This document shows, piece after piece, positions 1-11,826 of a stretch of 11,826 nucleotides of DNA. Position 1 is the first letter of the stretch. The number at the start of each line of letters is the position of its first letter. The notes under the pieces are model-generated. The model saw only the letters and a program-made list of their open reading frames with translations, searched no databases and was not told the origin of the DNA. This DNA is from a virus. Taxonomy: Duplodnaviria; Heunggongvirae; Uroviricota; Caudoviricetes. Both the position numbers and the translations under genes were made by a program. The stretch covers positions 1 to 11,826 of the IMG/VR virus record IMGVR_UViG_2917403263_000006, one strand, 5' to 3'.

Positions 1-173
1 ATGGGGATTATGCCGAATAATGTTGGGGGGTTTGGGGATGTGAAAAGCGAGTTTAGTGTTTTTGAGGAATGAATTATTGCCATTGCAAAAAAGGATGATG
101 GAACTAAATAAATGGTTAGGCCATGAAATTTTGAAATTTGAGACATATATACTTAGCTAATTGCCATTTTTTA

Positions 174-211
174 AAAGCCACGCCAATAATTAATATTAGA
201 ACCGTGGCTTT
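174..211 (-). terminator. Hairpin (9-bp perfect stem AAAGCCACG/CGTGGCTTT, 20-nt loop) just downstream of the PIN-like gene stop; possible weak or bidirectional terminator
   Basis: Inverted repeat seen directly at 174-182 and 203-211, flanked by a T/A-rich tract (TTTTTTAAA on one side, TTTAATTT on the other). The loop is large and the U-tract is short, so strength is doubtful. Confidence 0.3.
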
Positions 212-229
212 AATTTAGAGCATTAGATA

Positions 230-1315
230 CTAACGTTTCAACCAAAGGTCATCTACAGAAAACGAATCGAATTCATTCTCAGATGGAGAATAAATAAAGC
301 TCACTGTAAAATACGGTCTAACCAAAATCTCTAAAGTCACAACGTCACCATCACCATGAGTAAATGGGAATGCCGAATCTAAATCGCTTTTATTTTCAAT
401 ATAATCCAAATAAGGAATATCCACTTCAATAAAAACCCGTCTCAAATTAAAAGAATAGGCAATGTAATATTTATCCGCATCAATTGAAGTGATGCCTTCA
501 ATATAGCCATCCTCGAAATCTTCGATGACATCAACTCTAACATCCAAAACATTCGAAACTCTAGACTCAAAAATATTATTTTCAAGGTATTGACTAAGCA
601 TCATGTGATTAAAACTTGATAAATAATCGATACACTCACCTTCTAGAAACTCCTCGAAATAAGGCTCACTTCTTGCATGATCAAAAGCATGGATACTCTT
701 ATCAATAGATGATGTAACGAAGTCAAATAGCTTCCGATATGGAGTTATTTTTTGTGTTATGCCTAACTCTTCAATATCTCTTAGAAGATCATCATTAAAC
801 GTTGCAGGACCTTTACTGTTGGTAAAAAAGTCTGAGCTATTCTCAGTAATAAATACAAAATCATCATTACCCCCTGATGATTTGATATATTGAAGAAAAG
901 ATAACCAGATCAACGTATCACGGTATCCTTTTTCTTGTTCTGAGAAAGGTTTTATCTTTTCAAGGGCCCTACCAACCACCTTAGCATGTGGAATATCGTT
1001 ATAATCTATTAAAATTAAATTATCAACTTCCTTATTTAATATTTCTTTCAAATCATATTGTTCAATACCTAAGTTTTCAATTTTAAAATCTATTGGATTC
1101 TGATTAAGCTTTTTAATTTTACTAATAATGGAACGCATTTCATTTAATTGATTTTTGAGCTCTCTATTCCTGATATTGTTAGTCTCCTCAATTACTAAAT
1201 TTGATAATAACAAGTCGTTACATTCATTATTCAAAAAATGGAAAAGAAGTTTAAAATTAGCATTTTTAGCAAACCAATTATTGTAAAATATATTTGTATC
1301 CAAAAAAACTTTCAT
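230..1315 (-). CDS. Hypothetical cargo protein with N-terminal PIN-like nuclease domain and about 190-aa C-terminal extension of unknown function
   Basis: 361-codon ORF, ATG at 1315-1313, TAG at 232-230. N-terminus MKVFLDTNIF matches the first acidic motif of PIN domains (hhhDTNhh), with further acidic positions (VIEE, ILIDYND, FVFITENSSDF) at PIN-like spacing. Strongly AT-rich relative to the phage backbone. A TATAAT -10 hexamer lies on the - strand at 1357-1352. Confidence 0.6.
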   Translation of the reverse strand: MKVFLDTNIFYNNWFAKNANFKLLFHFLNNECNDLLLSNLVIEETNNIRNRELKNQLNEMRSIISKIKKLNQNPIDFKIENLGIEQYDLKEILNKEVDNLILIDYNDIPHAKVVGRALEKIKPFSEQEKGYRDTLIWLSFLQYIKSSGGNDDFVFITENSSDFFTNSKGPATFNDDLLRDIEELGITQKITPYRKLFDFVTSSIDKSIHAFDHARSEPYFEEFLEGECIDYLSSFNHMMLSQYLENNIFESRVSNVLDVRVDVIEDFEDGYIEGITSIDADKYYIAYSFNLRRVFIEVDIPYLDYIENKSDLDSAFPFTHGDGDVVTLEILVRPYFTVSFIYSPSENEFDSFSVDDLWLKR

Positions 1316-1371
1316 CTGTCTTTTCCAGTGATGTAGTTAATAACATAGGTAATTATAAATTGAATTGTAGG

Positions 1372-1396
1372 CCGGATCCACTGATAGTGGATCCGG
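1372..1396. repeat. Perfect 25-bp palindrome CCGGATCCACT-GAT-AGTGGATCCGG (two GGATCC cores) upstream of the PIN-like gene; candidate operator or terminator hairpin
   Basis: Read directly: 11-bp arms are exact reverse complements around a 3-nt centre. It sits about 15-20 bp upstream of the - strand TATAAT at 1357-1352, where a -35 element would lie. Confidence 0.5.
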
Positions 1397-1838
1397 TTTA
1401 AAAGATTGCATTTATGGCAATGTCAAGTATAAAAACAACCACAACATAATGATTGTATATCCAAAGGCCGTCAGTAAATCATAGCAATTATCACTTACAG
1501 GGGATGTGCGATTTTAATCGTTCAGCCGCGCGCTCATATCCCCGCCACGCCTGCCCGCTTTATGTAGCGGTTTTCATGCAGGTGCATGATCTACGCAAAA
1601 TCCCACCAGTTCTGGCGGGCCTTAGCAAAAACGATCCGCAAACGATCATGCGATCTCATGCGGCATAGTCATGCACTTACGGGGGGAACTGAAATCCAGT
1701 AACCGAATGATCGCTTGAAAAACGAAACATACGTACTTACAAAGCACAAAGCCTGCTTTGAGCGAAGCGGACGTTAATAATGTTGCTGACCATCCCTAGT
1801 ACTTCTCATAATATAGCCCTATGTTAATCAACAAAATA

Positions 1839-2669
1839 TTAATTTGTCCCATCACTAAAGAATTTGATTGCGTCAGTTAGTACATAGTCAATGAAAATTT
1901 TTACGTGGAAGACCTGAAAAACGCTATTTTCTGAGTTTTGAATGAAATCTACAGCTATATCTTTTAGGTTGATCAACCAGTTATATTCTTCAATCAGTCT
2001 AGTTCTGGCATCCGCATCAGAATAACGACTCCGTAAGCTAAATGCCAGTTTCCTCATGATAACTGGATCAAGTTTCCTATAGCTTTCAATGAAAACATCA
2101 GCAGGAACTAAGTGTAAAAAAGGTACGTCATGAAGATTTAACTGTCTATTATTAGAATGACTCAATTCAGATAACAACGATGATTTTCCCCTTTGTAACT
2201 CATCTCTGAACTGCAATGCAAATTCCGAAATTGATTCATCAAACCGTTTCTTCCTTGCTATTTTAATATGTTCAATAATGAGCTTAAAGTCATCACTATC
2301 CCTGTCAAGAAAACTTAAACTACGCCATCCCCTTAATTCGTTATAATGCGTTTGCGCATATTCCTTATGTACATCTTCAGCTCTCAGTCTATTATAATAA
2401 TTATTTATATTCTGTTTTGTCTCATTTATGAGATCATGAACATCATCTGTTGTTAGACCTTCTTTCGCCATTTCCAGCAAAATACTCGCTGTCATCAGGA
2501 GTTCACCTAAGGTAGTGATCTTACCTGAAAATAGGTTATCCTTAGCAATAGCGTACTGCTCATAAAGCATAGTTTCATTTAGTTCTCTATAGTTCCACAA
2601 ACACCTCCATGCTGGTGAATCGCTGCTTCTAAAAAAAACGCGTAACATCCAACTGAGCAAGAAGATCAC
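1839..2669 (-). CDS. Hypothetical protein, predicted largely alpha-helical; either a separate partner gene of the upstream NTPase or its C-terminal continuation across a frame break
   Basis: 276-codon ORF (first codon GTG at 2669; internal ATGs at 2648 and 2570 have weak RBS), TAA at 1841-1839. It overlaps the NTPase ORF end by 41 nt, across an A8 run at 2631-2638. Same AT-rich composition as the NTPase ORF. No recognisable catalytic motif. Confidence 0.5.
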   Translation of the reverse strand: MIFLLSWMLRVFFRSSDSPAWRCLWNYRELNETMLYEQYAIAKDNLFSGKITTLGELLMTASILLEMAKEGLTTDDVHDLINETKQNINNYYNRLRAEDVHKEYAQTHYNELRGWRSLSFLDRDSDDFKLIIEHIKIARKKRFDESISEFALQFRDELQRGKSSLLSELSHSNNRQLNLHDVPFLHLVPADVFIESYRKLDPVIMRKLAFSLRSRYSDADARTRLIEEYNWLINLKDIAVDFIQNSENSVFQVFHVKIFIDYVLTDAIKFFSDGTN

Positions 2670-3732
2670 CCGTTACCTTTCCATCACAGATTAGTTCTCT
2701 CCAAGACGCGCCATCCAGTAACTTCTCGGTTAATACAGGAGACGAATATTTCTCGACAATCATGTCATACTTACTTTTGACGCGTTCTTTACCCAAAAAC
2801 ATACCATAATTAACATTGCCGATTGAATTGAAATCCTCGTAGCTAAGATTCCCTCCCCGGTACTCCATCGAAAAAATTAACAATTGATGAAAAAACACCC
2901 TTATAAATTCATCGTTACTTAAATATTTATCTCCCAAAAGGGAAATAATTCGTTGTACATCGAGAAAGAACTGCCTCAAGTGTCTTAGATTATTATAATT
3001 CGCTGACACATAGAGGTCCTCTATTGTCTGCATATCTTCTTTAAATATATTAGCAACATGCAAACTACTAATTACGCTCAAGAAAATCTTACAAGCACTA
3101 TGTAAATCTGACGTTACTTCAAATGTTTTACCTACTAGCTTTTCTTTTGTTCTCATGTATTCATTGCGATATTTCTCATCATCATTATTTATTCGCTTTT
3201 CTCTATTGATTATTTCATCTTCATTGGCAACCAAGATCGCTTTGTATCCGTTTACTTCCACAAAGTGATTTATATATCCAAATAAGATTGGTAAATCTAC
3301 ACCAGCTCTCTCGACATCATCAAAGACCAGCACAAAACCATCTGGTTTTCTAGTAAAGTCGCTAAGATTAATGGTGGGAACATTGCTATTGATATCTACG
3401 TCAGATTTATTATCGCCATTAAGATCGATCTTGAAAGTAGCCTTAAGCGTATTTTTTAGTACATTTGCACCAAAGATAAGGGCTTTGTTTGATAGGACAG
3501 GATGCAATTGACGATAGAACTCATCTTCAATCTGCTCAATAGAGTTGACGCCATACAAGCTCACTTTTAGAAATTTGAACTCTGAATGTTTCTGCTTATA
3601 TTCTTCAAGAACTCGTTCAATGAACCAAGTTTTACCTGATCCCCAAGCACCTTTAAGCATAATGGCGTATTGAGGTTCAGTTTTAAGGCTAAGGTAATAT
3701 TCTATATAGTCTTTGATGTACGTATTGTGCAT
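2629..3732 (-). CDS. P-loop NTPase, KAP-like (Walker A GAWGSGKT near the N-terminus; Walker B-like VLVFDDVER)
   Basis: ORF with ATG at 3732-3730 (the track ORF starts at an upstream TTG at 3783), TAG at 2631-2629. LKGAWGSGKTWFI fits the KAP-family G-x-W-G-S-G-K-S/T P-loop signature; VLVFDDVERAG fits the KAP hhhhDD-x-(D/E)R Walker B pattern. No obvious transmembrane segment. AT-rich. Candidate -10 TATAAT on the - strand at 3847-3842. Confidence 0.65.
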   Translation of the reverse strand: MHNTYIKDYIEYYLSLKTEPQYAIMLKGAWGSGKTWFIERVLEEYKQKHSEFKFLKVSLYGVNSIEQIEDEFYRQLHPVLSNKALIFGANVLKNTLKATFKIDLNGDNKSDVDINSNVPTINLSDFTRKPDGFVLVFDDVERAGVDLPILFGYINHFVEVNGYKAILVANEDEIINREKRINNDDEKYRNEYMRTKEKLVGKTFEVTSDLHSACKIFLSVISSLHVANIFKEDMQTIEDLYVSANYNNLRHLRQFFLDVQRIISLLGDKYLSNDEFIRVFFHQLLIFSMEYRGGNLSYEDFNSIGNVNYGMFLGKERVKSKYDMIVEKYSSPVLTEKLLDGASWRELICDGKVTGDLLAQLDVTRFF

Positions 3733-4053
3733 TTTTAGTCCATTTTTATAAAATACATAAACATAGATGGTAAGTAGAGCCAAAGGCCAACTATGGAAAA
3801 TTCAATCGGTAGTGTACATTGTAAGGTTATTATTGGTAAATATTATAGGAATACCCATAATCTTACAAAATTCAGATTATCCGTTGCAAATTAGTCTGCC
3901 ATTCGTTAATTGACGAAAGATAGCAGAAGAAATGTTCGCTTCTGGCACAAAGCGGACGATCACTTATAAAAATGACCGCCCACCTTACGCCTTATTTCAC
4001 TCATTGCCCAAACTAGCCCCCATCAGAATGAATCCTCCTGGGGGCAACATTTC

Positions 4054-4287
4054 TTAATGCTGCCAGCTGTCGTCTTCCCACACCTTCTGCATAATTTTCA
4101 TCACTTGTTTTCTTTCTTCGTCCAGTTGCAGTCCGGTAAGTTCCACACCGTGAGAGCTACCTTTGCGGATACGAATTACCGTTTTGGGATACAGGGGGCG
4201 CAGATTGCGGTAAAGCTCGGATTCAAGGGCGTCCAGGATAGACTGGCTAATCTTCTGCTCTTTATCGATCATTATTTCAATGCGCAT
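4054..4287 (-). CDS. DinI-family protein; likely the C-terminal DinI-like domain or short product of a Tum-type SOS-inducible antirepressor
   Basis: 77-codon ORF, ATG at 4287-4285 preceded by GGTGA with 5-nt spacer, TAA at 4056-4054. MRIEIMIDKEQ...KIMQKVWEDDSW resembles E. coli DinI (MRIEVTIAK...ILQETWES). The frame is open upstream into the 4298-4486 ORF region. Confidence 0.7.
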   Translation of the reverse strand: MRIEIMIDKEQKISQSILDALESELYRNLRPLYPKTVIRIRKGSSHGVELTGLQLDEERKQVMKIMQKVWEDDSWQH

Positions 4288-4297
4288 AAAAGTCACC

Positions 4298-4486
4298 TCA
4301 ACTGATGACATCCATTGAGCGGTTGTATTCGTGGGTTCTGATTTTTGCCATGAGTTCATCAGTCAATTCAGAAACCCACTGCAAAGCCAGCCCCTTCTCT
4401 TCATCACTACACTCACTAGCCGCTACAAGCTTAAGAAAAAAATCAATGCGCTGGAGCTTCAAAGACTCCAAAAAATAGTCCTGCAT
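4298..4486 (-). CDS. Small ORF (62 codons), probably the N-terminal part of a tum-like antirepressor gene, separated from the DinI-like ORF by a frame break
   Basis: ATG at 4486-4484 preceded by GGAGG (4-nt spacer), TGA at 4300-4298. LexA box 40 bp upstream. Removing one base from the T5 run at 4342-4346 fuses it in frame to the DinI-like ORF, giving about 143 aa, close to the about 146 aa I recall for phage 186 Tum. Confidence 0.5.
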   Translation of the reverse strand: MQDYFLESLKLQRIDFFLKLVAASECSDEEKGLALQWVSELTDELMAKIRTHEYNRSMDVIS

Positions 4487-4526
4487 CTTTCCTCCTATAA
4501 CACCAAAGAAATATTGTATACATAAC

Positions 4527-4546
4527 CACTGTTTATATTTACAGTA
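4527..4546. promoter_or_regulatory. LexA operator (SOS box) CACTGTTTATATTTACAGTA upstream of the tum-like operon
   Basis: CTGT-N8-ACAG core at 4529-4544 with AT-rich spacer; 17 of 20 matches to the E. coli consensus TACTGTATATATATACAGTA. It overlaps -10-like hexamers (TATACT, TACAAT on the - strand) about 40-60 bp upstream of the 4486 start. Phage 186 tum is known to be LexA-controlled. Confidence 0.65.
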
Positions 4547-4559
4547 TATAATAATCTTA

Positions 4560-4591
4560 CTGATGTAAAACGTTTTTTTTACGTTCATCAG
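4560..4591 (-). terminator. Imperfect hairpin (CTGATG...CATCAG outer stem, AACG/CGTT inner stem, T8 loop) between gene A stop and the SOS promoter; possible early-operon terminator
   Basis: Inverted repeat read directly. The U-tract after the stem on the - strand is poor (UAAGAUUAUUA), so termination efficiency is uncertain. Confidence 0.3.
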
Positions 4592-4639
4592 CCTGATATG
4601 CTTGGTATTATTAAGAGCACGAATTGTTAACCCGCGTAA

Positions 4640-6764
4640 TTAATACAGGTTCCGCCACTTATCATCTTCCTGCAAACGCTGGTTCCGATAGAAGATACGC
4701 AGGCCTGCTCCTGACGGAATACTGCCGCCGCGAAGGAGTAAATCGACCTCTTTCTCGCTACCATCAAATCCTCTGGACTTCAGTTCATAGGCGAGCTGCT
4801 GTCGCTGATGGTCTGTAATTCGCTGTTTGTAGTCTTTACGCCGTTTCGGTTTCACCAGGCGTAACCTTGCTGCCAGTTCCCGGCGCTCTTTTTTGCTCAT
4901 ACTGTGCAGGTAATCGTGCAACTCCTTGTCATCCATGCGGGTGATATCCGTTCTGGTATCCCCATCAGCTGATTTGTCTTTCCCTTGTTGGTTCAAATTT
5001 TCAGCAAGGGGACAGTTATTGCCACGAGTCCAAGGGGCGCAAGCGCCCTGGTCGGCTGCCGCCTCCTGAACGTCAACGGCCTTACGAACCATTTTCCACT
5101 TCACGGCATGAGTGCAGATCTTGCCCTCTGCAATGGGTGACCAGATGCCATAAATACGAATGCCGTGATCGCCATAGGCGGTCGGCTCTTCGTTGATTTC
5201 ATAAGCGGTTCTGATCAGGTGATATTTGCGGGGAACCAGTACGCCGCCCTGCTTCATGATGTAGGTGGCAAAACAACCAGCATCAGCAGCAGCCAGGATG
5301 GCATCAAGGCACGGGTTATCCAGTACCGGCGCACCTGCTTTTTTGTCCCCCTGTTGCCTTGCCGCCTGACCAGCCAGCAATCGCAGTTCACGGTAAGCCT
5401 GACGCCCCGGAATGCCAAAGAAGCGGAATTGCTGAACACGATGCAGAGACGCCCAGGCATTAACGTATTCAGCGTTATCACGCAGGGATTTACCCGTTTC
5501 CTTGCTGATCTCGCCAGCCAGACCACGCCCGTCAATGTTCTTACTGATGTATTTCGCGATGTAGCTTGTTGGCGTACCTTTACGCGGGTTAATCAACTCA
5601 GACTTAAAGCGCGGCCCAGTGTTATTGCCCAGCTCCTCGCGGTCTTCACGGATGGCAAACTTACGCAGTAATGCAGTGATGGCGCGGCGGTTCTTTTTTG
5701 TGCATAAAACACAACAGGTGCCAGTGAACTGTACCGTCATGATGCGGCTCAGCCACCCGCACGCCATACCAGCGCAATCCGGCTTTGTGCATCGCCTTAC
5801 GAAATGCAGCAAACATGCCGACCAGATAATCACTGCTTTGTCTTACCGTCGCATTTGTCCAGGTCGGGTTGGGCCTGCCGTTATTTAGCGTGGAATGGAA
5901 ACGTGACGGACAGGTGATGGTGTAGAAAACGGCGCAGTCACCGCGCATTTCCGCGATAAGCTCCAGACCTTTAACACAGGCCATCATCTCATTGCGGCGA
6001 TGCGCAGGGTTGCTGCTGCTGGCGTTTACCACATCCTCCATGTCCAGCGTGTCGCCGTCTTCGTTCACCAGTTCATGAGAACGGAAAAACTCCAGCGACT
6101 TACGGCGCTGCTCACGTTTATGCATCACGGCTTCATAGCTGACATAGGGAGATGCTTTTTTGCTGACCAGGCAAACAGCACGCAACTGCTCTTCCCGCCA
6201 TTCGCAACGCATCTTCCATAATTTCCGGTACCACCAGTCGGCGCACAACATACGTGCCAGCGAACCCGGAATGAGTTCATAGGGCACGGGTTTACGGCGG
6301 TTTCTTTTCCGGCGGAGTTGCTCAAACGCAGGCGGTATGACATCCAGTCGCAGGGTTTCTGCTGCCACCTTTTCCCATGTCTTGCGGATTTCTTCTGGCT
6401 TAACATCATCGGTGGCGTACAAATCACCACAAGCGGCATCAAGACACATGCTCATATGCGCAGCGACAAGAGTAGACAGGCGTTTCACCTGATCCTGACT
6501 CATTTCAGGCAAGTTCAGCAGGCCGTCCAGCCCTTCATGGCTTGCCATAAAGCGAAAAGAAGTGGATAGCTGACTCTCGCGTACATGCTCCAGTCGTTCC
6601 AGACATGGCTTAATCGTCTCACGCAAATAGCGGGAATAAGCCTTTGGCCTGCCCAGGCTGCTGAAGTATTCAATACGTTGCATCAGCGGCTTGCTGATAT
6701 GGGAAGGCTGGGCGTTAACGTCCGCCAGTATGACCATGTCCGGATTAAAAACGCTGCTGCTCAT
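4640..6764 (-). CDS. A: Replication initiation endonuclease gpA (P2/186 gene A, HUH rolling-circle nickase); reading frame is broken at the T6/A6 run 5694-5699 in the sequence as given
   Basis: Two ORFs in frames offset by one (5661-6863 and 4640-5833). The upstream half ends with the HUH motif [15 protein letters not shown]. The downstream half carries the active-site pair [13 protein letters not shown] about 50 residues later, the same spacing as in P2 gpA. Deleting one A restores ...[14 protein letters not shown]... as one protein of about 700 aa. Start is uncertain (ATG 6764, 6737 or 6833; none has a strong RBS). Confidence 0.85.
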
Positions 6765-7056
6765 GCGCCAGCTTTGCCCGGCTAATGAGCTTATCCTGCT
6801 CCATTTCGCGTTGGACAGGATCACGGGATTCATTAAAGAAATAACGCTCCCAGACCTGATCACTCAGTGCCTCGAGGCGCAGTTGTTCCTGCTCGTTATC
6901 GGCAGCGTACAGAGTGATCAGGTTTGAAAGCGCAGAAACCGGCGCAACTTCCGCCGGGTCCAGATAAGGGTTAATAGCCTTTTTCGGGCTGTTCCATGAG
7001 AATGCTGCGGCGGCCTCGTTAAAGCCGCTGCAGTTGTTCATATCAGCATGGCTCAT
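6745..7056 (-). CDS. Hypothetical phage early protein (103 aa)
   Basis: ORF whose ATG overlaps the dam stop in an ATGA stop-start overlap (7053-7056), suggesting translational coupling. No motif recognised. Confidence 0.5.
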
Positions 7057-7910
7057 GCACGCACTCCGTACACGGCAGAACTATCCACGCCACGCGAAGG
7101 ATCAAATCCCACCCAGCAGCGCACCCCAGAAACAGCGATGATTTCTGTTGCAGATTTACTCTCACCAGCTGCTACGCCGATGCTGCGTTTTGCCTTGATG
7201 TAGTGGTGAGTGAAATTGCGATACAGCGAACGGATCAGGGATGTGTCACTGTTAGAAACAATGACCGGATGTCCTTCTGATGACCGATGTTCAAGAACGG
7301 ATGCCAGGTGATACTGGTCATCTTCAGTGAAGCCGTCAGTGTGATAACCGGAAAACGTACCGTCATAAGGCGGATCGCAATACACCACATCCCCCACCTG
7401 CAGCATCGCCAGCGTTTCATCAAAGCTGGCGCAGATAAACGTTGCTCGCTGGGCTTTCTCTGCAAATGCGCGAATTTCTTTTTCAGGGAAATACGGATTT
7501 TTATAATTACCGTATGGAATGTTGAAATGCCCGCTCTTGTTATAACGACATAACCCACGGTAACCGTGACGATTGAGATACAGGAAATATACCGCTTTCA
7601 TGAAATCAGTAATTTCAGTTGAGTAATTAAACTCCTGTCTTATGTTGTAATAAGTCACCTCCCTGTTTGCGTCCTCAAATAAAGCTCTGGCACGAGATAT
7701 AAACACCTCACAATCAGCGGCAACCTTTTTATAGAGGTTGATTAAATCAGGATTAATATCCGCAACCAGATAGCAGGGATAATCCGTCTCCATCATCACA
7801 GCACAGGAACCCGCGAAAGGTTCAACCAGTCGCGGGCCAGCAGGAAGGTGTTTTTTCAGTTCGGACATAATGGCGGTTTTATTTCCCGCCCATTTCAGGA
7901 TGGTGCTCAT
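7053..7910 (-). CDS. dam: DNA adenine N6-methyltransferase (Dam-like)
   Basis: 286 codons from ATG 7910-7908 (GGAGGTG RBS; ATGA overlap with the upstream gene stop). N-terminus [11 protein letters not shown] with PFAGSCAV (AdoMet-binding FxGxG-like) and catalytic [12 protein letters not shown] (DPPY motif). The track ORF 7053-7970 includes a 20-codon 5-prime extension that is unlikely to be translated. Confidence 0.85.
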
Positions 7911-8134
7911 ACAGCACCTCCGTTGTAATGTTTGCCTTTCAGCTCTGCAATTTCCTGGCAGGTAATGCAAAGCTGCACACCCGGAATGGCACGGCGGCGT
8001 GCTGGCGGAATTGGCGCTTCACACTCAATGCAAAGCACGCGAGACACGCCCGGTGTTTTGGCACGGGCAGCACGGATATGGCGCTGGCGTTCTTCTTCAA
8101 CGCGCTGCTGTACGAGATCCATTGCATCAGCCAT
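7907..8134 (-). CDS. TraR/DksA-family C4 zinc-finger protein
   Basis: 75 aa, ATG 8134-8132 with AGGAG 8 nt upstream. Two CxxC pairs (CIECEAPIP ... CITCQ) in the DksA/TraR arrangement. P2-family early regions carry such a gene. Confidence 0.75.
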   Translation of the reverse strand: MADAMDLVQQRVEEERQRHIRAARAKTPGVSRVLCIECEAPIPPARRRAIPGVQLCITCQEIAELKGKHYNGGAV

Positions 8135-8367
8135 TAGTGGATCTCCTGCGCTTCGTTCTGGATTGCTTCAGCAGTCACACGCAGCAGTTCTGCTGCTTCC
8201 ACGTGGTTTAGCTGGCGGGATGTGATATGACACGCCAGGCTATCAAGGCGGGCAGCCATTGCCTCAGCCCTTGCCCGACGTTCTTCAAGACGGGCCTCTG
8301 TCAGTAAAAGATTAAGACCTGCATCATCCGGTCCGGTTTTAGTCGTGAGGGTTTCAATATTACGCAT
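8134..8367 (-). CDS. Hypothetical small phage early protein (77 aa; resembles the small Arg/Glu-rich helical proteins of P2-family early regions)
   Basis: ATG at 8367-8365 preceded by AGGAG (8-nt spacer); the track start at 8373 is a TTG. Its TAA stop overlaps the next ATG (TAATG). Confidence 0.55.
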   Translation of the reverse strand: MRNIETLTTKTGPDDAGLNLLLTEARLEERRARAEAMAARLDSLACHITSRQLNHVEAAELLRVTAEAIQNEAQEIH

Positions 8368-8434
8368 AATCAATTCTCCTGAATTTAGATAAAGGGATGC
8401 CCGGCGGGTTTACGCCATGAATTTCATTAATTGG

Positions 8435-8776
8435 TTAATTCGGCATGGTTAGCCGTCTGGGAAATAAGCTCACCACTGCACGAAAATGATTCATTGCTTT
8501 AATCAGCTCCCGCTTTTCGTCAGTGGTCAGCTCATTAATGCTGATGCTATGACGTTCAGCTGGAATTTTTGCCATAAAGAATATGGCAGCCAGTGCCCGT
8601 TTATTTTGTTCATTATTGATATCCCGTGGATCACGCATATCTTTAATAAACCGCTCAAGCTCTGACTCAATATTAAGGCCAAATACTTTCGCCCTTAACT
8701 CCGCAATATGATTAAGTCCATTCAGGCGTTCACCGGGGCTTAATGGAACAGTCGCCGCAGCGCCTTCAATAGCCAT
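8435..8776 (-). CDS. Hypothetical phage early protein (113 aa)
   Basis: ORF with ATG at 8776-8774 preceded by a G-rich RBS; overlaps the upstream small ORF by 37 nt in another frame. No motif recognised. Confidence 0.5.
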   Translation of the reverse strand: MAIEGAAATVPLSPGERLNGLNHIAELRAKVFGLNIESELERFIKDMRDPRDINNEQNKRALAAIFFMAKIPAERHSISINELTTDEKRELIKAMNHFRAVVSLFPRRLTMPN

Positions 8777-8940
8777 TTGTTCCCCCGTTTTTTCGTTGAT
8801 AGTTCTGCCAGCAATTCATCTTGTGAATGGCATGGATGCCAGCGTTTACCATCCTCACCCATGATCCAGCCGTGACCGTAGTGCATTGCCGGGCTTTGTT
8901 TTACCAGCAGCGATGCAAATGATGGTTCTTTCGTCAGCAT
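8740..8940 (-). CDS. Hypothetical small protein (66 aa) immediately after cII, in the position of the 186 fil-like gene
   Basis: ATG at 8940-8938 preceded by GAGGTG (4-nt spacer), which overlaps the cII stop. Contains HGW...HPCH. Function unknown. Confidence 0.4.
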   Translation of the reverse strand: MLTKEPSFASLLVKQSPAMHYGHGWIMGEDGKRWHPCHSQDELLAELSTKKRGNKWLLKALRRLFH

Positions 8941-8947
8941 AAGCACC

Positions 8948-9457
8948 TCACAGCAAACCGAATGAAGCACCGAGGCCAGTCACGGTATCAACTGCACTCG
9001 CCATCGCAGGATTAGCCTGTAAACGGGCCTGCAATGAAACAGCCGCCAGCGCCATCAGTCGTGTTACAGAGTTAATGCTGCTGATAGCATCACGACGACC
9101 TGCACTGGTTTTTACATCGCCAGATACCGCACCTGCAGCAACACGCCCGATCTCTGCGGTTGCACTCATGACGTAATGCGGCAGTTTCTCTTTTGCCACT
9201 TCATTAATCGGTACACATGGCAGGCAGTGAATCTGTGCCAGAAAGCCATCTACCAGCGTTGAATCTTCAGTCAGATCGGTAAGCAACCAGATTTCTGGTG
9301 CGGTTAATAAATGAGGTTGAGCTGGGTTCAGCTTGTTCCGCAGAATCTGTACATTCATGCCTGCACGTTCTGCCAGTTGCACTAGGTTGTGGCGCAGTGC
9401 GAATGCACGACAGGCTTCATCAAAATGTGGATGTTTGGAAACTTGGTAATCAAACAT
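8948..9457 (-). CDS. cII: CII-like lysogeny establishment activator (phage 186 CII family)
   Basis: 169 codons from ATG 9457-9455 (the track ORF starts at an upstream TTG). [24 protein letters not shown]...[25 protein letters not shown] closely matches the 186 CII sequence as I recall it, and the length equals 186 CII (169 aa). Confidence 0.7.
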
Positions 9458-9521
9458 AGTTTTCAACTCCGAACTTATCGCAAAATCGAACTCAGCGTCT
9501 TATTGCGAAAATAGACGTCTA

Positions 9522-9725
9522 TTAAGCAGACAAAGCATCAACAGTCAGAGCAGCTAGGTTAATCATTACCTTTTCACGTTTTTTGTCTTTACGAAGACGA
9601 TGACGAGGTAGTCGGCCATCAGCCAACATGTCGTTAATCGTATCAATAGAAAGGCCAGTTAGTTCGCTATAACGTTCGATTGTGACATGTGGTGTATTCA
9701 GAGTAATTGAAATGTTAGGTGTCAT
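9522..9725 (-). CDS. Apl/Cox-type small HTH excisionase and repressor of the lysogenic promoter
   Basis: 67-aa ORF, first gene of the leftward operon, divergent from cI. Helix-turn-helix-like segment VTIERYSELTGLSIDTINDMLADGRLP. Position matches 186 apl / P2 cox. Confidence 0.6.
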   Translation of the reverse strand: MTPNISITLNTPHVTIERYSELTGLSIDTINDMLADGRLPRHRLRKDKKREKVMINLAALTVDALSA

Positions 9726-9814
9726 AAGGCAACATTCCTTCTAGATATGGCTTGTGGCGAGCCGTTGTTTGTCGTGATTAGTAGTGAAGGCTCCAAAAGA
9801 ACTCTTCTGGTTCA

Positions 9815-9843
9815 ACTTTAAGATCGCTTTTGGAATCTGTCAA
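9815..9843 (-). promoter_or_regulatory. pR-like early lytic promoter (-35 TTGACA, 17-bp spacer, -10 TAAAGT) firing toward apl
   Basis: On the - strand: TTGACA (9843-9838), 17-nt spacer, TAAAGT (9820-9815); perfect -35, 4 of 6 at -10. It lies inside the 5-prime extension of the long cI ORF (9784-9870), which argues that extension is not coding. Confidence 0.45.
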
Positions 9844-9870
9844 CGATTTTTGGATTTCTCTGGAGGACTC

Positions 9871-10440
9871 GTGGATTTCAATAGCGGTGGTAAGAAGGCC
9901 ATAGAACGTTTGGTTGAAGCATATGGGTTTGGTACCCGTCAGGCTCTCTGTGATCATTTAGGTGTTTCTAAGAGCACCATGGCAACACGCTATATGCGTG
10001 ATATTTTTCCGGCAGATTGGGTAATCCAGTGCGCACTAGAAACAGGCATCTCACTTCATTGGCTTACGACCGGGCATGGTTCAAAGCAAGCATCAGCAAA
10101 AACAAATGCTATAGAAGTAGTAAAATATTTATTGTCTGATGGAGACTTGCAGGAAGACGGGGTTTATATTTTTGATAAGGGATTTCTACCCTCTACGTTT
10201 AAAAATCCTTTTGTAGTCACAGTTAATAATTCTGAATTTATTTGTGATAAAGAATTTGATGATATACGTGATGGTAAATGGGTAATAAGTATTGATGGCG
10301 AAATAACAATCCGCGACATTACTCGTTTACCCGGTGGGAGAATCTTCGTTGAAGGTGGAAACAGAGCCTTCGAGTGTAAGATAGAAGATGTTGAAATAAT
10401 TGGAAAAATTATAAGTTTAACAGTTAAATATGTTAGATAA
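9871..10440 (+). CDS. cI: CI-type immunity repressor (phage 186 CI family)
   Basis: N-terminal segment IERLVEAYGFGTRQALCDHLGVSKSTMATRYMRD...CALETGISLHWLTTG matches the 186 CI DNA-binding domain (LDRICEAYGF...HCALETGANLQWLLTG as I recall it). Start placed at GTG 9871 (GGAGG 4 nt upstream), giving 189 aa against 192 for 186 CI; the track ORF starts at GTG 9784. Confidence 0.75.
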   Translation: MDFNSGGKKAIERLVEAYGFGTRQALCDHLGVSKSTMATRYMRDIFPADWVIQCALETGISLHWLTTGHGSKQASAKTNAIEVVKYLLSDGDLQEDGVYIFDKGFLPSTFKNPFVVTVNNSEFICDKEFDDIRDGKWVISIDGEITIRDITRLPGGRIFVEGGNRAFECKIEDVEIIGKIISLTVKYVR

Positions 10441-10833
10441 TACCGGGGGAAACTATGCTTGGTAAGGTATTTTTTGTGGTTTTATCATGCTCTTTGTTAT
10501 TAAACCCACTAACTACCTATGCTAAAAATTAATCCTTGTTCTGGGAAAAAGGGAGGTGTCTCTCACTGTACCTCCGATGGAAAATTTGTATGCAATGATG
10601 GGGCTATTAGTAAATCCAAAAAAATCTGTACTAAATACTCACGATAAATTTTGCTCTGATATCTGCGCCTAATATAACAATGAGGCGCAGGCTAACCACA
10701 AAAGTTACATACTCACATAACAAAAAATAGCCAACTTCATTATGGCTTCAGTGAGATGTATGGTCGCGGGATCTCATACATTGACACTGGTTATATATAC
10801 AGTAAAAATGCTCTCCACTGGAGGGCATTTTTT

Positions 10834-11826
10834 ATGGCAGTACGAAAACTCACCACAGGAAAATGGCTTTGCGAATGTTACCCCGCCGGACGTAGTGGAC
10901 GTCGTGTGCGTAAACAATTCGCCACCAAAGGCGAAGCTCTGGCTTTTGAGCGTCACACGATGGAAGAAACCGAAGCAAAGCCCTGGCTGGGTGAATCAGT
11001 GGATCGTCGAACACTGAAAGACGTGGTTGAGCTATGGTTCAAACTACATGGTAAATCTCTGACTGCTGGGCAGCATGTCTATGACAAATTGCTGCTGATG
11101 GTTGACGCTCTGGGCAATCCCCTTGCAACCGATCTCACATCTAAAATGTTTGCCCATTATCGAGATAAACGACTGACAGGTGAGATCTACTTCAGCGAGA
11201 AATGGAAGAAAGGAGCCAGCCCGGTCACCATTAACCTGGAGCAAAGCTATCTAAGTAGTGTTTTTAGCGAACTATCCCGCCTGGGCGAATGGTCGTATCC
11301 AAACCCACTGGAGAACATGCGAAAATTCACCATCGCAGAAAAAGAGATGGCATGGCTTACCCATGAGCAGATTGTTGAACTGCTGGCTGATTGCAAACGT
11401 CAGGACCCAATTCTGGCACTGGTAGTCAAGATATGCTTAAGCACAGGCGCACGCTGGCGAGAAGCAATAAACCTTACCCGATCACAGGTGACCAAATACC
11501 GAATTACCTTTGTAAGAACGAAGGGGAAGAAAAACAGAAGCATCCCTATCAGTAAAGAGCTTTACGAAGAGATCATGGCGCTTGATGGGTTCAATTTCTT
11601 CACAGACTGCTATTTTCAATTTTTATCCGTGATGGAAAAAAACGTCTATCGTGCTCCCTCGCGGTCAACTGACACACGTTCTGCGCCATACGTTTGCGGC
11701 GCACTTCATGATGTCGGGTGGAAATATCCTTGCTTTGCAAAAAATCCTCGGACATCACGATATAAAAATGACAATGCGTTACGCACATCTGGCACCGGAT
11801 CACCTGGAAACTGCATTACGGTTTAA
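10834..11826 (+). CDS. int: Tyrosine integrase (P2/186 family), 3-prime end beyond the window; reading frame breaks at the A7 run 11636-11642 in the sequence as given
   Basis: ATG at 10834 (MAVRKLTTGKWLCECYPAGRSGRRVRKQFATKGEALAFE is a typical P2/186-type integrase N-terminus). The conserved catalytic C-terminus VLPRGQLTHVLRHTFAAHFMMSGGNILALQKILGHHDIKMTMRYAHLAPDHLE is present only in the +1 frame after 11642. Deleting one A gives ...DCYFQFLSVMEKTSIVLPRGQLTH..., the same length as the 186 Int segment between TDAY and LPKGQ. Confidence 0.85.
   Translation: MAVRKLTTGKWLCECYPAGRSGRRVRKQFATKGEALAFERHTMEETEAKPWLGESVDRRTLKDVVELWFKLHGKSLTAGQHVYDKLLLMVDALGNPLATDLTSKMFAHYRDKRLTGEIYFSEKWKKGASPVTINLEQSYLSSVFSELSRLGEWSYPNPLENMRKFTIAEKEMAWLTHEQIVELLADCKRQDPILALVVKICLSTGARWREAINLTRSQVTKYRITFVRTKGKKNRSIPISKELYEEIMALDGFNFFTDCYFQFLSVMEKNVYRAPSRSTDTRSAPYVCGALHDVGWKYPCFAKNPRTSRYKNDNALRTSGTGSPGNCITV

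Follow-up and report, generated by a model that had tools for sequence, protein, structure and literature searches.

The stretch of DNA analysed here, hereafter the window, is 11,826 nucleotides long and carries on its minus strand a replication gene A (gpA) of the P2 type, an identity that the initial annotation had assigned correctly. As the sequence is written, no continuous frame holds both motifs of gpA, the HUH motif and the tyrosine pair; the gene is distributed over three frames, which we attribute to sequence error on the grounds set out below. The features of the gene are the following:

4640 to 7056, minus strand: gpA replication endonuclease gene as written, 2417 bases (2415 plus 2 regarded as spurious), in three frame segments
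6745 to 7056, minus strand: N-terminal fragment, 103 codons from the ATG at 7056 to a TAA created by the first frameshift
6747 to 6751: first insertion regarded as spurious (site 1), A5 on the plus strand (T5 on the coding strand) where relatives have A4
5661 to 6749, minus strand: middle fragment, in a second frame, with the HUH motif and positions 1-264 of the Phage_GPA profile; the mechanical ORF extends upstream to the GTG at 6863
5718 to 5726, minus strand: codons H-W-H of the HUH motif, residues 444-446 of the repaired gpA (within VHWHLL, residues 443-448), aligned with the HWH of P2 gpA
5694 to 5699, plus strand: T6 run, which is A6 on the coding strand (AAA AAA, Lys-Lys) and of normal length
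5691 to 5692: second insertion regarded as spurious (site 2), TT on the plus strand where relatives have a single T, with a C between the TT and the T6 run
4640 to 5692, minus strand: C-terminal fragment, in a third frame, with the catalytic tyrosine pair and positions 264-321 of the Phage_GPA profile; the mechanical ORF extends upstream to the GTG at 5833
5549 to 5563, minus strand: YIAKY tyrosine pair (Y-x-x-K-Y), residues 498-502 of the repaired gpA, aligned with Y450/Y454 of P2

The two ORFs from which the initial annotation had deduced a split gene, 5661-6863 and 4640-5833, are indeed present on the minus strand, where they overlap in different frames; the HUH motif stands at the end of the former and YIAKY lies in the latter, as had been described. 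According to Pfam, a single Phage_GPA domain (PF05840) is cut in two between them, with profile positions 1-264 in ORF 5661-6863 (E 2.1e-103) and 264-321 in ORF 4640-5833 (E 2.3e-17), whereas the intact counterpart matches the profile from 1 to 321 (E 2.4e-127). The extent of the gene was deduced from a tblastn search with the intact gpA of E. coli ML35 as query, which aligned to the window in three pieces in frames -1, -2 and -3 (7056-6748, 6749-5691 and 5737-4643). From these pieces it follows that gpA begins with the ATG at 7056 and not with the GTG at 6863; the true gene runs from 7056 to 4640 and encodes 804 amino acids. Residues 1-103 of intact gpA are matched by the N-terminal fragment with 96% identity.

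When the window was aligned to three intact homologues, two extra bases, not one, were found. The initial annotation had placed a single lesion in the T6 run at 5694-5699 and had seen no other defect in either half of the gene. The T6 run is present at that position, but it is not the lesion: the pattern of one T, a C and T6 occurs in all 171 homologous loci that were fetched, and the extra T lies beside it, at 5691/5692, so that the window reads GGTTC where relatives read GGTC. On the coding strand, the relatives have ATG-CGC/CAC-AAA-AAA-GAC-CGC, with the A6 run in frame, whereas the window continues as AAA-AAA-GAA-CCG. Deletion of one base from T6, as had been suggested, does rejoin the frames; it yields K-K-N, however, in place of the true K-K-D. 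Nor is this the single lesion, since a second +1 insertion (A5 instead of A4, at 6747-6751) severs the first 103 codons. Site 1 is A4 in 100 of 100 homologous loci fetched. A frameshift was found in 0/171 loci at site 2 and in 0/100 at site 1, and the same split arrangement, which the initial annotation had considered for related functional phages, is accordingly absent from the relatives compared. It had also been proposed that independent sequence confirming T6 would speak against an error. Taken literally this confirmation has been obtained, as T6 is real; a confirmed T6 does not, however, make the split real, because the extra base lies 2-3 nt from the run. Removal of one T at 5691/5692 and of one A within 6747-6751 restores an 804-aa protein identical to the intact gpA of VATQ01000003.1, an assembly described below.

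The lesions themselves were also searched for. In IMG/VR, the 24-mer spanning the site-1 lesion was not found, whereas the intact version is present in at least 120 contigs; the intact site-2 pattern has at least 120 matches, and the 28 matches of the 17-mer spanning the site-2 lesion, a pattern too short for specificity, include none that is homologous to gpA. Neither lesion pattern was therefore found within a gpA homologue of IMG/VR. In the gene-position index, no record of a 103-aa N-terminal gpA product was found, and a 367-aa fragment of the KAP NTPase described below is recorded in PDID01 only. A scan of genome contigs with the 21-mer of an integrase lesion (see below) returned only a chance match, without homology, in a Bacteroides MAG.

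The source of the window was traced through its PIN_12 cargo protein and then its CI; by exact string match, the window corresponds to bases 1-11826 of PDID01000005.1 (GCA_004745145.1). PDID00000000 is the assembly of Escherichia cryptic clade II strain E3659, sequenced to 40x by Ion Torrent as single-end reads of 35-400 bp, with assembly by MIRA and SPAdes (PMC6639607). The record thus comes from a flow-based platform, as would be expected if the break were an artefact. With about 90.5% identity to E. coli, the host flank fits a non-coli Escherichia. The contig starts inside the prophage, which is therefore split across contigs in the PDID01 assembly.

Over 20,440 bases, VATQ01000003.1 (GCA_005781135.1) and PDID01000005.1 differ by 0 substitutions and 11 indel events, a comparison that would be one between close relatives, not between two sequencings of one DNA, if VATQ01 represents a different isolate. 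The 11 events are 10 single-base insertions in PDID01000005.1 and one 2-base gap at position 42. No gene is broken in VATQ01000003.1, where gpA measures 804 aa and the KAP NTPase 630 aa. Because this otherwise identical sequence has gpA whole, the break in gpA is almost certainly a sequencing error. Over 15,429 bases, the intact version is reproduced with 100% identity by the Logan assembly of SRR8835201; that of SRR6148330 carries 0 of the 10 insertions but has lost a single base at each of two other sites (positions 1695 and 8566 of that sequence: a G of GG inside gpA and an A of an A5 run inside a ybjJ-like gene). All three assemblies thus lack the ten insertions. It should be mentioned that SRR6148330 may share the Ion Torrent project, or even the strain, with the window. 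As for the 2-base gap, the bases GA are missing at window positions 42-43 relative to VATQ01000003.1, 42 bases from the contig start and in the 3' end of the portal gene.

Besides the two insertions in gpA, eight more single-base insertions were located. The breaks in the KAP NTPase, the integrase and the YdcA-like ORF were seen by comparing the whole window with the annotated prophage of E. coli ML35. The insertions are:

1681 to 1686: G6 where G5 is expected, intergenic
2631 to 2638: A8 where A7 is expected, splitting the KAP P-loop NTPase (630 aa) into ORFs 2629-3783 and 1839-2669
4573 to 4580: T8 where T7 is expected, intergenic
10531 to 10532: AA where A is expected, adjoining an A5 run, with a frameshift in a 63-aa YdcA-like ORF
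11636 to 11642: A7 where A6 is expected, with a frameshift in the integrase
14143, 16435 and 19600 of PDID01000005.1, in host DNA beyond the window: three further one-base insertions

Of the three in host DNA, two are an A each in a ybjJ-like and an mdfA-like MFS gene, which were equated with ybjJ and mdfA by length and position, and the third is a T in an intergenic A8 run. Altogether, seven single-base insertions fall in six genes, two of them of the host, and three are intergenic; the genes broken are those of the KAP NTPase, gpA (twice), the YdcA-like ORF, the integrase and the two host MFS genes, that is, 6 of the 25 compared. The frameshift defect is not specific to gpA, and the indel problem reaches beyond the prophage. 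The pattern is that of an artefact in that the differences from VATQ01000003.1 are indels and not substitutions and are spread over unrelated genes and spacers, those of the host included. All ten single-base indels are insertions, nine of them of A or T. Nine of the ten are at most 3 nt away from a run of at least 5 bases, although such positions make up 7.25% of the sequence, and the tenth lies in an A4 run; the binomial chance of at least nine in ten so placed is about 5e-10 (our own calculation from the 7.25%).

We are therefore highly confident that the split of gpA goes back to bases wrongly inserted in the consensus of an Ion Torrent draft, and that the gene is an ordinary, intact initiator of the P2 family, which systematic single-base insertion errors in that draft divide into three pieces. 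In the mechanism that we propose, flow-based base calling would over-call bases in or beside A/T runs, and at modest coverage recurrent over-calls could win the consensus. Two such errors would have hit gpA (5691/5692 and 6747-6751), and eight more would have fallen within the same 20 kb, in other prophage genes, host genes and spacers. We infer that the errors entered during base calling or when the consensus was built.

The known error profile of the platform supports this explanation in most respects. Errors of the Ion Torrent PGM were reported to be mostly indels, with substitutions an order of magnitude rarer; high-frequency indels occur at about 1 per kb of reference, the commonest being A/T insertions or C/G deletions, are mostly unique to one run, and result in frameshifts in assemblies (Bragg et al. 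2013, PMC3623719). The likeness extends to the exclusive occurrence of indels, the density (about 0.5 insertions per kb here against about 1 per kb reported), the share of A/T (9/10), the lack of reproduction in other datasets and the frameshifts in the assembly. Two differences were noted. Long runs (A7, T7, A6) were over-called here, whereas in that study under-calls, i.e. deletions, dominated for longer homopolymers; moreover, a later library kit of about 400 bp and a MIRA/SPAdes consensus step were used here. Two points could be raised against an artefact, namely that the direction of over-calling depends on chemistry, base-caller or assembler, and that homopolymer-associated +1 indels also arise from real replication slippage.

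The second point leads to the alternative that survives best, although we regard it as very unlikely: that the frameshifts are real and very recent, and that the E3659 prophage is decaying, with gpA, the integrase and the cargo genes as pseudogenes and with neither replication nor excision. Inactivation is frequent among prophage genes, slippage by +1 at runs does occur as a class of mutation, and each of the two gpA lesions is found in a run or next to one. Decay of the prophage is nevertheless rejected, since beyond its borders conserved genes of the host (ybjJ- and mdfA-like) carry the same lesions and since 20.4 kb hold 0 substitutions against 11 indel events. Furthermore, the single-base changes are all insertions and are found in no other assembly, exactly such errors are known of Ion Torrent, and a density of 6 broken genes in 25 would extrapolate, by our own estimate, to the order of a thousand broken genes genome-wide. 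The initial annotation had left the choice between a sequencing artefact and a very recent mutation; its first option is strongly supported, but the anatomy that it gave was incomplete, as there are two frameshifts and the extra base at site 2 lies outside T6. Its inference that the phage could not initiate replication is unwarranted, given that the DNA itself most likely lacks the lesions. Slightly less probable still is that the extra T at 5691/5692 in particular is real in E3659, in which case the initiator would just have been lost or full-length gpA would be made via +1 slippage at A AAA AAG.

A mismatch-repair-deficient mutator strain with homopolymer indels throughout its genome, gpA included, would account for run-associated indels in prophage and host genes alike. 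We consider this scarcely credible. In mutators, numerous transitions build up together with both insertions and deletions, whereas the 20.4 kb contain 0 substitutions and no single-base deletions; the indel density would be implausible for a viable cell; and SRR6148330, with the same sequence but other indels at other sites, shows the behaviour of errors and not of inherited mutations.

Programmed recoding at A AAA AAG, by +1 ribosomal frameshifting or transcriptional slippage, would make the split functional, and the coding strand does read C-AAA-AAA-G directly before the frame change, slippery A-runs of this kind serving recoding in other genes; its probability is nonetheless negligible, because every relative (171/171) has the same A6 in frame and without a frameshift, although recoding sites are conserved, and, in addition, the ORF is continuous in an assembly with zero substitutions relative to the window, the unrelated frameshift at 6747-6751 would need recoding too, and similar insertions lie in spacers and unrelated genes.

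Consensus error in the draft assembly being the preferred explanation, the split of gpA is not a real biological feature, and the prophage looks like a complete, ordinary P2-like element. It is important to note that calls of pseudogenes, of a "defective prophage" or of recoding sites in the PDID01 assembly need independent sequence, and the same caution probably applies to the 15 sister Ion Torrent assemblies of the same project. With insertions this dense, about one gene in four (6/25) seems to be frameshifted.

Several observations were made on the surroundings of gpA. Between DinI and the portal gene, a variable slot (window 230-3783, minus strand) holds the KAP P-loop NTPase and a 361-aa protein with a PIN_12 domain. 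The KAP NTPase matches the PADLOC candidate defence family PDC-S49 (E 1e-156), and no PADLOC match was found for the PIN_12 protein. Since the position of the slot is that of the tin/old lysogenic-conversion genes of P2, the two proteins are predicted to be, probably, anti-phage cargo. Other cargo occupies the same slot elsewhere: a retron St85 effector and polymerase in Klebsiella phage 4LV2017 and, in relatives, a CdiI_2 and RNase_A_bac pair, Cap4-nuclease genes with an acetyltransferase, and a DUF8087 protein. The loci with alternative cargo, designated by our locus numbers, are:

L005, 395 to 2378
L210, 8307 to 9434
L216, 1 to 447, and L220, 1 to 1990
L212, 9050 to 9385

With its high turnover of content, the slot between DinI and the portal gene is typical of defence hotspots.

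The Fil region (window 8740-8940) is about 258 bp shorter than in E. coli ML35 and was considered as a possible defect; this was rejected, as several intact relatives share the 66-aa Fil. The 66-aa form, which overlaps the DUF5347 gene, is a natural variant of the 98-aa form found in E. coli ML35. The integration site adjoins a TetR-family gene in the position of E. coli rcdA (ybjK), at 12404-13009 in VATQ01000003.1 (L213) and at 12276-12881 in PDID01000005.1 (L214), and the related prophage of E. coli ML35 has the same neighbourhood at rcdA (ybjK).

The closest known systems are P2-like phages of the Felsduovirus/Elveevirus type, with which the gpA gene shares 97-98% DNA identity over its full length. 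The intact homologues, annotated as "nicking at origin of replication" in Salmonella phage RE-2010, as gpA in Klebsiella phage 4LV2017 and as "replication endonuclease" in an E. coli prophage, measure 2415 bases and encode 804 aa, which is the length of the window gpA after removal of the two spurious bases. The operon context is shared as well, with a Dam methylase upstream and a 62-aa ORF and DinI downstream. The differences consist of the two extra bases in the window record and ordinary substitutions relative to these more distant relatives, none of them a demonstrable difference in biology.

The characterised rolling-circle initiator of the family is gpA of bacteriophage P2 (NP_046795, 761 aa), which belongs to the same Pfam family (PF05840) and matches the repaired gpA with 31% identity over 632 residues (BLASTP E 8e-81). 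An EPHHDGT-HWH block and a second block of 12 residues are conserved, and the YIAKY tyrosines align to Y450/Y454, whereas the window gpA, at 804 against 761 aa, is extended at its N-terminus. The roles of the P2 gpA tyrosines were reportedly treated by Odegrip and Haggard-Ljungquist in 2001. The early genes differ, P2 having C, cox and B and the window a 186/Fels-2-like set of CI, CII and Fil, and in the P2 record the nick site is annotated inside gene A. Judged by its sequence, the repaired gpA falls squarely within the P2 gpA family (PF05840, HUH endonuclease superfamily) and shows nothing new.
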